DNA from: an uncultured Halobacteria archaeon
GTDB lineage: Archaea; Halobacteriota; Syntropharchaeia; JACQPP01
Length of the DNA stretch: 24,000 bases
Assembly (NCBI GenBank): GCA_964486625.1
Contig: CAZANW010000016.1
Location: 8,398 to 32,397 of the forward strand
Direction of reading: 5' to 3'
Position numbers and translations under genes: made by a program. The notes beneath the pieces are model-generated. The model was not told the origin of the DNA, ran no database searches, and saw only the letters and a list, made by a program, of their open reading frames with translations. Below are positions 594-20,046 of this stretch, one piece after another (positions within the stretch are counted from its first letter, which is position 1; every line of letters starts with the position of its first letter).

Positions 594-2477
594 TCAGAAG
601 TCCCAGTTCGCCGGCTGCCCGTAGTTCTTGGTCCACCAAAGCGGGAACCCGAGCCTGACCCACCGCAGCGCCTCCTTGTATCCGGAGTCCACCGGCGTCC
701 CCGAAATCACCGGGTAGAAAACGAGGAACAGGACCGCCGCCGCCGTGATGAGCGCCGCGGCGAGCCAGAGCCCCCGCTTCGGGTCCTTTTCCCACGCCCG
801 CTCCACACCCCACGCGCACCCGAGGGCGAGCAGGGCGACGTTCGGGAAGTAGTGGTAGATGAAGAGGACTCGCGGGATGGGCGCGAGGGCGGCCCACTGG
901 ACGAGCCAGGCGACGCCGATGAAGAGCGCCGCCCGTTCCCTGCGCGCCCGGGAGAGGGCGAGGACCACGAACGCCAGCCCCGCCCACCACACCACCGGGT
1001 TCCCCATCGAGACGATGGTCGAGACCTTGTCGCCGAAGGTCTCGCCATACATCCAGAGCGGGTGGAGGATAAGGGGCCACGACCACCACGGGGAGCCGTA
1101 GGGGTGGGGGGCTTCCAGGGTGGAGTGGTATCCCCAGATGGAGCGCGGCCCGCAGCACTGCTCCGAGAGGACGTCGCCGAGCCCGAGGCCCGAGGCGTAG
1201 TAGGGGGCGTAGGTCGCCAGGTAAATCGCCCCGGCCGCAGCGAGGCCGGCGAGGAACGGGCGGACCGAGGCGCGGAAGAGGTCGCGCTCGCGCCGCACCC
1301 GCACGAGGGCCAGGAGGAGGAGAGCCGCCAGCGAGTTCACGGCGACGACCTTGACGGAGAGGGCGAGGCCGAAAAAGAGCAGCGCAAGGAACAATGGATT
1401 TTTGAGGATTCCGACAGCTCGCGCGCGCTCGGCGGCACACGCATCCGCAGGAGGCGTGTGTTTGCGACAAAGTCGCAAGGCCCCGGCCTCGCTCGCTCGG
1501 GCCAGCGCCGCTCCTCGCGCCTCGCTTCGCTCGGCGCTCGTCGCAATCATGGCGCTGGGGGCCGCCTCGCTTGTGCGCTCGCTGCCCTTCAATGAGTTGC
1601 CTCTTCCGGGGAGAATCTCTGAGGGCGTCATCCACCACTTGGCGAAGAAGGCCCACATCCCCGTCAGGAACAGGAACAGGAAAATCTCTCCCGTCGAAAT
1701 CCGCGCCTGGGTGAAGTGCATGAAGTCGAACGTGACGAGCGCCGCGGCCACGATGCCCGCGCGCCGGTTCCCGAGCAGGTTGCGCCCCAGCAGGAACGCC
1801 GCCGGGATGGCCGCCGCGCCCGCCAGGACCCCGAGGAGCCGCCAGCCGAAGGGGCCGTTCCCCGCCACGAGAATCGAGAGGGCAATCAGGTCCTTCCCGA
1901 GAGGCGGGTGGGTCCACTCGAAGAAGGGCGGGGCCCGCCGGAGATACTCGTCGGCGGTCCGCATGAAGTAAATCTCGTCGAAGTAGGCGCCCGCGAAGTA
2001 GGTGGGGGCGCCGGAGACGAGGGCCGCCTCGTCCGCGAGTTTTTCGGCGCCCGGCGGCCCGCTCACGCCGGAGACCCGCACCGCGTCGAGCCCCCGGACG
2101 GGGACCACCTCGGCGACCGTCGCCCGGGAGTCGCTGAAGTTGAGCCGGAGGTAGCGGGTGTCGCACTGGGTCGTGGAGGGGACCCACTGCTTGTAGTCGC
2201 CCTGCGCCGAAGCGGTGGACTTGTAGGACCATTCGCCCGGCTGGCCGCAGGACACCTCGGCCTTCAGCGGCTCGGGGTCCCACACCGCGAAGAAGACGCG
2301 GTCCACCCGCTGGACGCTCCCGAGGTCGAGGACCGCCTCTCCGTCCCCCCTCCAGCCGCTCGACGGGAAGGCGCCGGCCCCGAGGTTCCAGAGGCCGACG
2401 ATGAGAAAGAGGGCGGTGAGGCCCGAAACAATCGCCAGCGGCGCGCGCGGATGGACCAGCCACTTCTTTGGTTCCAT
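594..2477 (-). CDS. GT39 / PMT-family dolichyl-phosphate-mannose-protein mannosyltransferase-like GT-C membrane glycosyltransferase, carrying an in-frame repeat-element insertion
   Basis: 627-aa polytopic membrane protein. Loop-1 acidic motif YFDEIYFMRTADEYL (PMT DE motif) and C-terminal HPYGSPWWSWPL motif typical of the PMT/PMT_4TMC region. Starts 3 nt after the stop of the upstream gene (operon). Confidence 0.85.
   Translation of the reverse strand: MEPKKWLVHPRAPLAIVSGLTALFLIVGLWNLGAGAFPSSGWRGDGEAVLDLGSVQRVDRVFFAVWDPEPLKAEVSCGQPGEWSYKSTASAQGDYKQWVPSTTQCDTRYLRLNFSDSRATVAEVVPVRGLDAVRVSGVSGPPGAEKLADEAALVSGAPTYFAGAYFDEIYFMRTADEYLRRAPPFFEWTHPPLGKDLIALSILVAGNGPFGWRLLGVLAGAAAIPAAFLLGRNLLGNRRAGIVAAALVTFDFMHFTQARISTGEIFLFLFLTGMWAFFAKWWMTPSEILPGRGNSLKGSERTSEAAPSAMIATSAERSEARGAALARASEAGALRLCRKHTPPADACAAERARAVGILKNPLFLALLFFGLALSVKVVAVNSLAALLLLALVRVRRERDLFRASVRPFLAGLAAAGAIYLATYAPYYASGLGLGDVLSEQCCGPRSIWGYHSTLEAPHPYGSPWWSWPLILHPLWMYGETFGDKVSTIVSMGNPVVWWAGLAFVVLALSRARRERAALFIGVAWLVQWAALAPIPRVLFIYHYFPNVALLALGCAWGVERAWEKDPKRGLWLAAALITAAAVLFLVFYPVISGTPVDSGYKEALRWVRLGFPLWWTKNYGQPANWDF
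1404..1619. repeat. GC-rich palindromic (MITE/RPE-like) element, copy A, inside the GT39 ORF
   Basis: A 1406-1486 matches the reverse complement of 15341-15420 (about 90% by hand alignment). A 1501-1557 matches 15284-15339 in direct orientation (about 50 of 57). Ends are gaggattc ... gagaatctc. Outer boundaries are approximate. Confidence 0.7.
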
Positions 2478-5171: not shown

Positions 5172-5309
5172 TGAAAAATCCTAAGCACTAAATTCTAAAT
5201 CCTAAACAAATTCAAATGCTTAAAATCCAAAATTCAAAACGGAAGTTTTGGATTTTGTGCTTTGAATTTCGGATTTGTTTAGGATTTAGGATTTTGAACT
5301 TGGAATTTT
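5172..5309. repeat. AT-rich long imperfect palindrome (arms about 65 nt, loop ggaa at 5241-5244) built from aaatcctaa / ttaggattt units
   Basis: The left arm (5173-5240) is largely complementary to the right arm (5245-5309). GC is far below the surrounding sequence. It fills the gap between convergent genes and abuts the stop codon at 5308-5310. T-runs are present on both strands. Confidence 0.7.
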
Positions 5310-12054: not shown

Positions 12055-12060
12055 GTCCGG

Positions 12061-12130
12061 AATGCAAAATGAAAAATGCAAAATGAAAAATGCAAGATTT
12101 TGACTTTTGAACTTTGCATTTTGCACTTTG
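12061..12130. repeat. AT-rich imperfect palindrome of the tgcaaaat/attttgca family (with a 14-nt tandem unit aatgcaaaatgaaa)
   Basis: Lies between the pepQ-like stop (12145) and the map start (12054). The minus strand reads ...tgcatttttcattttgcatttttcattttgcatt. The 15-mer tgcatttttcatttt (complement of 12066-12080 and 12080-12094) recurs at 20009-20023. Confidence 0.7.
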
Positions 12131-12144
12131 GCTTGCCGGCGCCA

Positions 12145-15178: not shown

Positions 15179-15219
15179 CCATGGCGAGAAATAATTTATC
15201 GAAACATCTCGGAAAGGTA

Positions 15220-15428
15220 GTTCGAGGATTCTCGACGGGCCGCGCGCTCGGCGCCGGTGCTCGGGCTCGCTTCGCTCGCCCTCGCCAGCGCCGCTCCTCG
15301 CGCGTAGCTTCGCTCCGCGCTCGTCGCATATTGGCGCTGACCGGCGCCTTGCGGCTTCGCCGCAAACACACACCTCCTGCGGATGCGTGTGCCGCCGAGC
15401 GTGCGCGAGCTGTCGAATCCCCCGAACG
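15220..15428. repeat. GC-rich palindromic (MITE/RPE-like) element, copy B, in the dsrE-dsrF spacer
   Basis: Terminal inverted repeats gttcgaggattctcgac ... gtcgaatcccccgaac. Internal blocks match copy A (see 1404..1619). Track ORFs 15181..15480(+) and part of 15196..15834(-) are translations of this element. Confidence 0.75.
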
Positions 15429-15483
15429 GCGATTGGCTGGCCGGAGGAATATCGAACAACGGTTGCAGAAAGGGCGTTAGTTC

Positions 15484-15843
15484 ATGAAACCCAAGACCAG
15501 GACACGGAACGTCGTCTTCTTGGTCCGGCAGCCGCCCGTCGCCTCCGGCTGGACCTCCGAGGCCCTGCGGGTCGCCGTGGGGATGACCCTCGCCGACGGC
15601 AACCGCGTTACGGTGGTCCTCCTCGGGGACGGGGTCCTCGCCCTCGCTTCCCCGAAGCCCGAGGCCGTCGAATCCCTTGGACTCCGGGAGCACGTCGAGA
15701 CCCTCCGGGAACTCGGCGTCCGGCTGGTGGCGGAGAGGGAGGCGTGCGCGCGGCACGGGGTCGTCGCGCCGGGGGCGGAGACCGCCGACCGGGATGCAAT
15801 CGCGTTCCTGCTTGCTGACGCGGAGGTGCTCCAATCGTGGTGA
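15484..15843 (+). CDS. dsrF: DsrF/TusC-like sulfur-relay protein
   Basis: VVLLGDGVLAL, the EREACARHGV (C...RG) context and C-terminal AEVLQSW parallel TusC landmarks. Confidence 0.7.
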   Translation: MKPKTRTRNVVFLVRQPPVASGWTSEALRVAVGMTLADGNRVTVVLLGDGVLALASPKPEAVESLGLREHVETLRELGVRLVAEREACARHGVVAPGAETADRDAIAFLLADAEVLQSW

Positions 15844-18088: not shown

Positions 18089-18850
18089 GCCTCCCCGGGC
18101 AACCGGCCCGGGGGAACCGGGCGGGCGTGGCCCCGCCAGACCAGCGTCCCTTGTCAGACCCCCGATGGGTCCAAGGGTCCGGACTTACCGGGACGACCGC
18201 TCGGGAGGGGCGGGCCCGGAACCCGCGCCTCACTCCTTCTATGTCCCCGCCGCCGATAGGGCTTCCGGACGGAAAAGACGTAGGCGACCGTAGTCGTTGC
18301 CGACGATACAGGAGGGCGTTCGAAGGGTCCGCGAAAAGGGATATGGCCGGGCCGGAACTCCAGCGTTCATCGCTTGCTTTGCGATCGGCGCGTCCGTAGG
18401 AAGCGCCGAGGCGCAACGAAGCTGCGCCGCTCCGGCCGGTAACCCTCGGCCCGGCTCTGCATCCCCGCGGGGCATACACGGGAATCATCGCAGGAATGTC
18501 CGGCTGCTCCCGGGTACCGTTGCGGGGACTGTGGCCCTCCCGTTGCCCCGGCCGTCACGGAAGGCTTCGCCATCTTGGGCCGGTCCTCGTGGAGGGCTCC
18601 CCAAATTGAGTCGGGCCAAGGCAAAAACCCCTCGTTGCCGACGAAACGAGAGGGTTTCCGAGAGGACCGGCGCGGGCCTCAACCTTTGACTGCCACGCGT
18701 GCCGAAGGCACGCGGGATCGAGGCCCGCGACGACGAGACGAGAGAGTTCCGAGTGGACCGGCAACAAAGGCCGGTCCTCGTGGAGGGCCCAATCCCCATG
18801 CACCCCCCTGGATAAAAACCCGCAGGGCAAACGCGAGTCATCGCGACATC
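18089..18850. ncRNA. ORF-free, highly structured, internally repetitive region: candidate unclassified structured RNA(s); strand undetermined
   Basis: No believable ORF in any frame. Strong helices: 18092-18099/18105-18112, 18627-18653, 18670-18679/18719-18728 enclosing 18695-18702/18706-18713, and 18754-18761/18770-18777. Direct repeats: an exact 20-mer at 18577-18596 and 18768-18787, and a roughly 32-nt near-repeat at 18639-18670 and 18731-18761. Confidence 0.35.
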
Positions 18851-18851
18851 C

Positions 18852-18859
18852 TTTATATT
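18852..18859 (+). promoter_or_regulatory. TATA box (tttatatt) for the GTPase gene
   Basis: Centred about 30 nt upstream of the ATG at 18886. Confidence 0.55.
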
Positions 18860-18885
18860 CCCCCCTCCTACGGCTCCCCCAAGAA

Positions 18886-19967: not shown

Positions 19968-20046
19968 CAATGCAAATTGAAAATTGCAAAGTGCAACGTG
20001 CAAAATTTTGCATTTTTCATTTTTCAATCTGCGATTTTCAATCGTA
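19968..20046. repeat. AT-rich imperfect palindrome of the tgcaaaat/attttgca family
   Basis: caatgcaaattgaaaattgcaaagtgcaacgtgcaaaa|ttttgcatttttcatttttcaatctgcgattttcaatcg fills the gap between the GTPase stop (19944) and the next ATG (20050). Shares the 15-mer tgcatttttcatttt with the 12.1-kb element. Confidence 0.7.

Follow-up and report, generated by a model that had tools for sequence, protein, structure and literature searches.

Copies of a mosaic repeat, probably a non-autonomous foldback element, in a glycosyltransferase gene and a DsrE-flanked spacer of an archaeal genome

The window analyzed here, a stretch of 24,000 nucleotides from a 2.0-Mb archaeal MAG (69% GC; assembly G000, 148 contigs, 87% complete), carries two copies of a hairpin-rich repeat. 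Copy A lies in frame within an open reading frame for a PMT/GT39-type glycosyltransferase (594..2477, minus strand; Pfam PMT, PMT_2 and PMT_4TMC), and copy B occupies a 317-nt intergenic spacer (15188..15504) between two DsrE-family genes (Pfam DsrE). A sequence-only reading of the window had described two shared modules, the first inverted between the copies and the second in direct orientation. This description was borne out at all its coordinates, with 1392-1486 matching the reverse complement of 15341-15435 (95 nt, 84%) and 1486-1545 repeated directly at 15269-15328 (60 nt, 88%). When blastn was run against the whole 2.0-Mb assembly, identities were 91.4% over 81 nt for module 1 (E 5e-26) and 86.1% over 72 nt for module 2 (E 2e-17), so that the module matches between copies A and B are far above chance.

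Copy A reads on the plus strand as a terminal repeat (T), a nested element (H) and an arm, with only one T recognizable. The a-type T (gaggattccgacagctcgcgcgcgctcggcgg; 1404..1435) was placed by alignment with approximately 40 T ends and is followed by the 45-nt H (1436..1480; 79.7 bits with model R1, and covariation), in which hairpin 1 reads cacacgc-a-tcc-gca-gga-g-gcgtgtg and hairpin 2 reads ttgcgac-aaa-gtcgcaa, then gg; the pairing segments cacacgc and gcgtgtg noted previously at 1436-1442 and 1454-1460 are indeed present. The remaining arm, whose L hairpin is shortened, spans 1481..1566 as judged from alignment with 16 other arms and from pair counts, and the arm alignment places within it a closing helix (ccagcgcc 1502-1509 / ggcgctgg 1551-1558), the M hairpin (gcgcc 1517-1521, loop tcgcttcgctc 1522-1532, ggcgc 1533-1537) and the 3' strand of the helix s1 (ggggccgcc, 1558-1566). 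Its nearest counterparts are the a-type arms C7_42k, C36, C41a and C5a (82-83%). A truncated centre module, C1 (tcgcttgtgcgc...; 1567..1600, plus strand), matches the first ~21 nt of the post-arm module found on contigs C2, C5, C7, C26 and C36; its boundary with the native coding sequence is approximate, and a right terminal repeat is not recognizable. The ortholog of this glycosyltransferase in a same-genus genome (G001) is 80% identical and is without residues ~290-354, the site measuring 231 nt here and 48 nt there (net +183 nt). Copy A amounts to 61 extra stop-free codons in the PMT gene.

Copy B is a two-ended foldback, with a T and an arm on the left and a T and an H on the right. The b-type left T (gttcgaggattctcgacgggccgcgcgctc; 15220..15249, plus strand) is a canonical T end that pairs with the right T. 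This segment repeats the first ~30 nt of module 1 (gttcGAGGATTCTCGACGGGCCGCGCGCTC), a feature absent from the sequence-only reading, and this repetition at the left end indicates terminal inverted repeats and end-to-end folding. The arm (15250..15348, plus strand; pair counts) comprises, by the arm alignment, the s1 helix (ggcgccggt 15250-15258 / accggcgcc 15340-15348) with the L hairpin inside it, a closing helix (cagcgcc 15286-15292 / ggcgctg 15333-15339) and the M hairpin (gcgcg 15300-15304, loop tagcttcgctc, cgcgc 15316-15320). Its closest relatives are the arms on C30 and C69, with 97% identity over 120 nt to C30:234-353 and 94% to the C69 arm; in the arm alignment C30, C69 and C5b are nearest (84-90%), and identity to the arm of copy A is 77%. 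The H of copy B (15347..15391, minus strand; 77.7 bits with model R1) overlaps the last two bases of s1' with its terminal GG, and the a-type right T (15392..15427, minus strand), placed by T-end alignment and folding, is inverted relative to the left T. The ends 15220-15249 and 15392-15427 pair over ~28 bp, and folding end to end gives an MFE of -117 kcal/mol (minus strand, z -4). At the orthologous position the same-genus genome has a spacer of 26 nt (G001:C4:130493-130518).

Both copies belong to a mosaic repeat family of ~40 loci and ~23 arms in this assembly, whose non-coding, multi-copy elements measure 200-420 bp. The elements are built from T, an arm (the s1 helix around hairpin L plus a second closed hairpin, M) and several centre modules, with the two-hairpin H forming an extra block nested between T and arm in six copies. 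The ~40 T ends in the assembly align and have in common the core CGCGC(G/A)CGCTCGGCG, preceded by GGGG..TC.CGAC. In the arm, a fixed unit, T is followed by the closing helix s1 and then by the hairpins L and M, and this T-to-M order is contiguous in the sister genome G001 too. Full-length copies have a T at both ends, and in examples such as C5:41519-41812 M is present in both arms in inverted orientation. Module maps show palindromic units mixed with other motifs in alternating orientation, and the six T+H copies have six different downstream module sets. The earlier suggestion of a recombining segment thus stands in an evolutionary sense only. The architecture of the family, its covariation and its presence or absence at orthologous sites were observed directly, and we regard copies A and B as probably members of a hairpin-dense mosaic family that is genus-specific and non-autonomous, a foldback element resembling both MITEs and BIMEs.

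The module architecture accounts for the opposite relative orientation of modules in copies A and B, making an inversion event unnecessary. Full-length elements carry an arm at each end, inverted relative to one another; copy A retains an H-bearing T and an arm on one side and has lost its right end, whereas in copy B the arm belongs to the left T and the H to the right, inverted T. Because the arms of the two copies are joined to T and H differently, M only looks inverted relative to H. Copy B would most simply derive from a longer element through recombination or the loss of an internal part, although the H-bearing, two-armed parent assumed here is not present in the assembly.

The sequence-only reading had instead raised the possibility of an invertible segment. 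In such a scenario the L-M block of copy B (15259-15339) would flip, by site-specific or homologous recombination, between the nonamers ggcgccggt and accggcgcc, with copies A and B as its two states. These 9-nt inverted repeats do bracket the block, the octamers reported within them (ggcgccgg 15250-15257; ccggcgcc 15341-15348) can be read in the sequence, and an inversion would yield the internal order seen in flipped copy B. However, the same inverted nonamers surround L-M in every arm, where they covary as a helix, and the octamers are part of this s1 closing helix. When copies were tabulated across the whole assembly, M pointed the same way with respect to its adjacent T in every one of the ~23 arms, as did H in all six copies, and the T-s1-M'-L' order expected from s1-mediated inversion was found in no arm. 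Furthermore, T-s1-L-M in copy B is a canonical arm, as its 97% identity to the C30 arm attests, the arms of A and B fall into different sub-lineages at only 77% identity, and 9 bp is short for homologous inversion. Compared with site-specific invertible switches, both a recombinase neighbor and switch-specific repeats are missing here, the neighbors being DsrE-family genes and the repeats the generic s1 helix. Taken together, these results make an invertible segment very improbable, and a phase-variation switch between the dsrE-like genes or in the glycosyltransferase gene is probably a false lead. A single ancient inversion between s1 repeats would give an identical internal order and is disfavored only by parsimony.

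Copy B could also be a chimera produced by mis-joining or collapse in a short-read MAG. The family does break the assembly, with several contigs ending inside repeat copies (C92, C81, C30, C69, C28 and C108), and it fragments MAG assemblies. Yet copy B has on either side sequence collinear with genes that are adjacent in the sister genome, its internal junction has just ~2 nt in common, which is too little for graph collapse, and copy A sits within an intact open reading frame. An assembly artefact is therefore extremely improbable.

Comparison of A and B had suggested that secondary structure is maintained, and this proved to extend well beyond the two copies. In hairpin 1, ggaggCgtgtg of copy A is ggaggTgtgtg in copy B, giving a G.T pair in the sense of the plus strand of copy A, and in hairpin 2 gcgac-aaa-gtcgc (1464-1476) is replaced by gcggc-gaa-gccgc (complement of 15351-15363), an A:T to G:C double change; the H of copy B carries both the G.T change and the compensated pair. 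A third copy, at C2:21089-21146 and absent from the earlier reading, retains the single-step intermediate gcgAc-gaa-gcCgc in the second hairpin. Across the family compensatory changes are pervasive among arms and H units, the A/B pair being one case of covariation seen in 15 arms and 57 H units. In the 15 arms, 90.9% of cells were paired vs. 28-48% in slid controls, double changes occurred in 13 of 35 pairs (5 of 9 in the s1 helix and 4 of 7 in the M stem), and in none of 500 arm shuffles did the paired percentage or the covariation score come up to the observed value. For the H units 97.5% of cells were paired (n = 57, three genomes; 95-97.5% across the H counts) and 16 of the 17 pairs covaried; for arms and H together, 91-97% of helix cells were paired as compared with 28-60% in slid controls. 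The arms contained 430 Watson-Crick pairs, 2 G.T and 1 A.C among 442 cells, and H contained 866 Watson-Crick, 26 G.T and 9 A.C pairs, in an alignment that is model-fitted and favors G-U pairs. The excess of G.T over A.C in H represents some strand bias, which would fit RNA too.

Loops were conserved as well as stems. Hairpin-2 loops of H were GAA in 34, GCA in 9 and GGA in 4 of the 57 units, with a C-G closing pair in 53 of 53, and arm loops contain, on one of the strands, GCGAAGC with GA/GA flanks. The GNA-bearing strands of H and of the arm are opposite strands in copy A. As DNA, mini-hairpins of the d(GCGAAGC) and GNA kinds have exceptional stability; their RNA forms are much less stable (PMC13037366).

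Apparent compensation might also arise without selection on structure, by intrastrand template switching or repair between palindrome halves that restores perfect pairing in one step; the repeats would then be purely selfish or neutral DNA. Template switching is documented to make and preserve perfect hairpins and to mimic compensatory changes (PMC8794818). This process predicts near-exclusive Watson-Crick pairing, as found, but the structure-specific conservation of loops (G-N-A with free N, invariant C-G closing and GA/GA flanks) indicates that template switching alone is insufficient. Additionally, the mismatched A.C intermediate of the C2 copy persists beside the compensated copy B, and H is kept at orthologous sites in two genomes. 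We consider an explanation without selection on structure improbable.

Selection on structured RNA, with H and the arm cloverleaf acting as a cis-acting mRNA stabilizer or terminator, a protein-binding motif or a small RNA, is likewise unlikely. Such a role would be consistent with the strong covariation, the conserved loops, the surplus of G.T over A.C on the sense strand of H (26 vs. 9) and the conservation of H across an order. Against it, the arms are nearly free of G.U (2 in 442 cells), 3-nt GNA triloops closed by C-G are the signature of DNA mini-hairpins and far less stable as RNA, the GNA strands of H and arm are opposed in copy A, and the model-fitted H alignment is itself biased to G-U pairs. 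No Rfam family matched the window at gathering score, and a search of 1380-1630 at E<=10 returned only an 11.6-bit chance match (E 8.7). Orientation to neighboring genes is mixed, with units inside open reading frames and both upstream and downstream of genes, and H as a terminator or 5'-UTR element was rejected for want of a consistent orientation relative to genes.

The maintained pairing, the near-exclusive Watson-Crick composition, the C-GNA-G triloops and the GCGAAGC arm loops together suggest that it is as single-stranded DNA hairpins that the units may matter, while they spread or are maintained, and not as a switch. If this holds true, the elements would point to a hairpin-recognizing enzyme and would offer a natural test set for stable mini-hairpins in a GC-rich genome.

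The two hairpins of module 1 constitute a distinct element, H, 45 nt in length and with C-GNA-G triloops at the hairpin tips, which is new here. All three genomes of the order (G000, G001 and G002; completeness 73-90%) contain H, with 29, 19 and 60 matches, and 28 further genomes from the class gave none. Arms without H read ...ctcggcgg|ccccggcc..., a junction which identifies H as a precise 45-nt insertion, nested in the T-arm repeat in six copies. One intergenic H of G000 is absent in G001. Two H sites give a hint of GG^CC as the target. The modal length of H equals 15 codons, the unit is GC-rich and stop-free, and a galactokinase with H in frame has 15 extra residues relative to its G002 ortholog; this is the only in-gene case that we claim, the longest-ORF test of other G002 copies having given spurious frames. 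We tentatively propose that H is a previously undescribed archaeal mobile unit, a hairpin pair of ~45 nt with DNA-type C-GNA-G triloops and covarying stems, restricted to one small euryarchaeal order, which might spread as single-stranded DNA via a non-Y1/RAYT enzyme and settle in genes and repeats as 15 stop-free codons. A literature search for the H sequence returned unrelated primer matches only. A viral origin was considered and rejected: the hairpin-2 pattern in one AT-rich viral contig, without the first hairpin, was a chance match, and the 17-nt T core gave one uninformative match each in 99 GC-rich viral contigs. In the window a third, diverged H-like unit was detected at 18378..18435 (plus strand; model R1, 45.1 bits, E 4.5e-10), reading tcggcgc-gtcc-gta-ggaa-gcgccga and gcgcaac-gaa-gctgcgc. 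One look-up of an H empty site in G001 (C33) met another repeat family of ~150 nt.

Copies A and B are both missing at the orthologous sites of G001, an insertion polymorphism, although the junctions of these empty sites are too diverged to define a target-site duplication. We infer a DNA-level mechanism and a putative mobilizing enzyme. No Y1/RAYT transposase (Y1 HUH, PF01797) was found in G000, G001 or G002 (73-90% complete), while control genomes matched, and the 87% complete assembly showed no transposase bracketed by a T pair. A link to TnpB/IS605 was set aside, as the one TnpB-like gene, on the 1.9-kb contig C142, has flanks unlike the repeat modules. The continuity with TnpA/TnpB element ends that an IS200/IS605-derived PATE or omega-RNA relic would show was not found, and no module matched on C142. 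A search for IS ends with GGGG..CTCGAC gave 213 matches, mostly coding, and was too unspecific.

Among known systems, REP/BIME elements are similar in being short, imperfect, GC-rich palindromes that lie scattered, mostly in intergenic DNA, in forming mosaics with other motifs in alternating orientations, and in conserving the hairpin rather than the stem sequence, plausibly acting as single-stranded DNA. Those elements are proteobacterial and mobilized by RAYT (Y1/HUH), whereas here the host is archaeal and its order's three genomes have no such gene. REPs are imperfect palindromes of 20-40 bp that carry a terminal GTAG or CGTC tag on one side (PMC3733652), and no conserved tag of this kind occurs at the stem feet of H or arm hairpins; the units here include a 45-mer of two hairpins and, with terminal inverted repeats, a cloverleaf arm of ~110 nt, and a number of copies are located within genes. 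Prokaryotic MITEs and foldback elements (Neisseria Correia, Sulfolobus SM1-SM4, haloarchaeal MITEs/PATEs; PMC10969869) share a size of 200-400 bp, terminal inverted repeats, lack of coding capacity, many copies, orthologous presence/absence and an end-to-end fold. In contrast to them, neither a target-site duplication nor a same-ended parent IS was found here, the elements are strongly modular, their arms, centre modules and smaller nested unit being shuffled between copies, and covariation inside the element goes beyond simple inverted-repeat conservation.

Rickettsia palindromic elements (RPEs) are comparable as in-frame palindromes that leave genes unbroken, as do copy A in the PMT gene and H in galactokinase. 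Host and sequence are unrelated, however, the likeness being functional with no homology claimed; most copies here are intergenic, and H is 45 nt vs. ~100-150 nt for RPEs. The GC clusters of yeast mitochondria (PMC4478555) may be analogous as small, mobile, GC-rich, mutually nesting hairpins that invade genes and intergenic DNA, but they sit in an AT-rich organellar background and appear to have no sequence relationship to the present units. The apical motif is that of the GCGNAGC / C-GNA-G DNA mini-hairpins at single-strand initiation sites (phage G4 origin, ssiA, phage N4 promoters; PMC13037366), and it recurs here as GCGAAGC, complementary to the L and M loops, as CCGAAGG in H hairpin 1 and as ACGAAGT in H hairpin 2. 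Those are single functional sites for a primase or polymerase, while these are dispersed repeats; the likeness is one of motif.

These results place REP/BIME-like hairpin modules, held by covariation and bearing DNA-type GNA triloops, in a barely sampled archaeal lineage, in whose three genomes the transposase family that mobilizes their bacterial counterparts was not found. The modules nest in one another and in protein-coding genes that remain unbroken. The insertions add 15-61 spurious-looking residues to annotated proteins. Judged by its isolate name, the nearest sequenced relative may come from a hot spring sample.

The two similar stretches claimed by the sequence-only reading are real. 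A repeat search of the window resulted in an inverted pair, 1392-1486 with 15341-15435 (95 nt, 84%), and a direct pair, 1486-1545 with 15269-15328 (60 nt, 88%), and blastn against the whole assembly (2,011,971 bp, 148 contigs, 68.8% GC; the window corresponds to C16:8398-32397) gave E values of 5e-26 and 2e-17 for these similarities. Reading the sequence confirmed each reported coordinate, for the octamers and both stems as well as for the A:T to G:C double change and the G.T change. The outer ~30 nt of module 1, the repeat block that holds both hairpins, recur at the left end of copy B (15220-15249), which had been overlooked; as a result, copy B is bounded by terminal inverted repeats and has an end-to-end fold.

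Copies A and B have many relatives in the assembly, where blastn and iterated nhmmer and regex scans identified ~40 loci composed of a small repertoire of modules: a terminal repeat, T (core CGCGC(G/A)CGCTCGGCG, with GGGG..TC.CGAC before the core), an arm, the centre modules C1, C2 and C3, and a two-hairpin block, H, which is present in six copies. Full-length elements span 280-420 bp with T at each end (for example contig positions C41:3099-3362, C5:41519-41812 and C2:21077-21491), and several of them carry the M hairpin twice, one per arm, in inverted orientation. Copy A is laid out as T(a)-H-arm-C1(part) with the right end absent, and copy B has T(b)-arm at the left and inverted H-T(a) at the right.

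In a 15-arm alignment the order was fixed as T, the 5' strand of the closing helix s1, hairpin L, cagcgcc, hairpin M, ggcgctg and the 3' strand of s1. With the structure drawn by hand, 90.9% of arm cells were paired, versus 28-48% with partners slid, and both-sided changes were present in 13 of 35 pairs. The s1 helix (94.8% paired, 5 of 9 pairs covarying) occurs, for example, as ggcgccggt/accggcgcc, ggcgcccgt/acgggcgcc, ggcggcccc/ggggccgcc and gacggccag/ctggccgtc, and the M stem (99% paired, 4 of 7 pairs covarying) as gcgcc/ggcgc, gcgcg/cgcgc, ggacc/ggtcc, gcgtc/gacgc and gcttc/gaagc.

The octamers said to bracket module 2 in copy B are the s1 helix of the arm, with ggcgccggt as the 5' strand and accggcgcc as the 3' strand. 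In all ~23 arms M is oriented the same way relative to the adjoining T, and so is H relative to its T in 6 of 6 H-bearing copies; what distinguishes copies A and B is the T next to each block, and copy B, when flipped, reads T(a)-H-[M' L']-T(b)'. The order T-s1-cagcgcc-M', expected from inversion between the s1 repeats, was not found in any arm of the assembly. Because the orientations are constant, the copy B arm is canonical and arms of the inverted order are absent, we read the opposite relative orientation of the modules as a consequence of a mosaic foldback architecture with no evidence of a flip, and the suggestion of an invertible segment is unsupported. Copy B would instead be the remnant of a two-armed element after loss of its own a-side arm and centre, as suggested by the identity of its left 120 nt to the arms on contigs C30 (97%) and C69 (94%), by the divergence of the arms of A and B (only 77% alike, from different sub-lineages) and by the arm (T to M) also being contiguous in the same-genus sister genome G001. 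Only GG of H is shared with GG of s1 at the copy B junction.

G001 served as the outgroup for both copies. Copy A lies inside a PMT/GT39-type glycosyltransferase reading frame (594-2477, minus strand; Pfam PMT, PMT_2, PMT_4TMC), whose G001 ortholog (contig JAWCQZ010000009.1, "MAG: Halobacteria archaeon isolate JZ-2_201907_bins_36") is 80% identical and is without residues ~290-354. At the DNA level the site measures 231 nt versus 48 nt in G001, a net increase by 183 nt (61 codons), and the insert (about 1404-1600) keeps the reading frame with no stop. These 61 codons fall between two predicted membrane segments of the enzyme. Two DsrE-family genes are separated by the 317-nt spacer that holds copy B; in G001 this spacer is 26 nt. 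Since the T core is present about 40 times in the source genome (G000), 4 times in G001 and 0 times in G002 (another genus of the family), the mosaic element expanded recently in the G000 lineage.

No Y1/RAYT transposase was found in G000, G001 or G002, no T pair enclosing a transposase was seen in the assembly, and no viral relative was found. In its behavior the mosaic element resembles a BIME or MITE, and inside genes an RPE. Membership tests place it outside the REP-RAYT system, and of the MITE hallmarks a parent IS was not found and no target-site duplication was defined. A TnpB/Cas12f-like (PF07282) reading frame makes up nearly all of the short G000 contig C142 (L011; 1-1856) and is the only match to PF07282 in the assembly; a link to the hairpin repeats was rejected because its flanks do not resemble them.

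The most interesting outcome, slightly beyond the scope of the original observation, is H, a 45-nt GNA-capped hairpin-pair element that is specific to one small archaeal order and nests in repeats and genes. The hairpin pair is also found outside the mosaic repeat, where first stems are entirely different and the apex and second hairpin are conserved. A 12-sequence alignment showed 95% pairing with 9 of 17 pairs covarying, and 57 units from the three genomes, aligned by and hence biased towards the structure of the covariance model R1, showed 97.5% pairing with 16 of 17 covarying, versus 45-60% pairing in slid controls. R1 matched 29 times in G000, 19 in G001 and 60 in G002, the only three genomes that the order contains, and 28 further genomes from the class had none. 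The hairpin-2 loops (n=57) include GAA (34), GCA (9), GGA (4) and AAA (3) with an invariant C-G closing pair, and hairpin 1 has an A/G.G mismatch beneath a TCC-GNA-GGA apex. Template switching could yield compensated stems in the absence of selection (PMC8794818), but it leaves the structure-specific loop conservation unexplained. The constraint on secondary structure that was originally proposed is supported and greatly extended by the 15 arms and 57 H units.

By sequence comparison, H is a discrete insertion, because an H-bearing arm equals an H-less arm plus exactly 45 nt (the modal length, in 23/57 units), because an H unit adds 15 residues (ALASEGGEGFRRSQK in G000) to the galactokinases of G000 (C54:8153-9253; L059/L102) and G001 (C1:200714-201814), and because the intergenic H at C38:17969-18025 has no counterpart in the orthologous spacer of G001. 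The GDYVKGV motif and the GSGLSSS phosphate loop lie on either side of the galactokinase insert, and the G002 ortholog (C53:12064-13110) is exactly 15 residues shorter there. One H sequence is common to the six T+H copies, which points to a single entry into a T arm followed by joint spread. H units with the stem tcggcgc/gcgccga (G000 C79:7113-7170 and C119:2295-2353; G001 C2:20243-20301) sit in another shared module (…gcgcgcccgtgggcc…ggtaggggccccaccgagg…), an indication that more than one repeat family harbors H. Additionally, three or more 45-46-nt H-like units (gcccctggagggggcggccttttgcgacgcagtcgcaaggaggac) stand in tandem at G000 C50:7688-7935, in an array broken by an N run in the assembly.

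The compensatory change between copies A and B in the second hairpin is genuine, with an intermediate, gcgAc-gaa-gcCgc, present in the C2 copy. Read in this sense, the intermediate gives A.C (G.T on the opposite strand) and the copy B change in hairpin 1 gives G.T; the two cases therefore point to no consistent strand. Arm pairs comprise 430 Watson-Crick, 2 G.T and 1 A.C, and H pairs 866, 26 and 9, respectively. The L and M loops have the sequence GA-GCG(A/C)AGC-GA when the strand complementary to T is read, a GCGNAGC mini-hairpin with the middle base free and potential tandem G.A pairs at its flanks. The DNA hairpin d(GCGAAGC) has a Tm of 76.5 C versus 39 C for the related RNA hairpin r(GCGAAAGC), and the ssiA priming site contains CCGAAGG (PMC13037366). 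An RNA role is less likely: the modest excess of G.T over A.C in H fits it, but the almost purely Watson-Crick pairs, the mixed orientation of units relative to genes and the lack of an Rfam match in the window argue against it. Together with the loops and the DNA melting data, these observations lead us to favor hairpins that act as single-stranded DNA.

Other repeats were also observed. The window contains a ~600-nt non-coding stretch (18240-18870; no match in Rfam) with a diverged H unit (18378-18435) and internal repeats, tcgttgccgacga...gaccg at 18294 and 18632 and ggccggtcctcgtggagggc at 18569 and 18769. A ~150-nt repeat at G000 C33:2028-2177 (L105:179-328), distinct from the T/arm family and from H, has >40 matches in G001 at 80-93% identity. 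Furthermore, AT-rich, long imperfect palindromes of short A/T-rich units at 5172-5309, 12060-12135 and 19968-20043 of the window (repeats I2, I3, I11 and I23) form a second, unrelated, intergenic repeat family.
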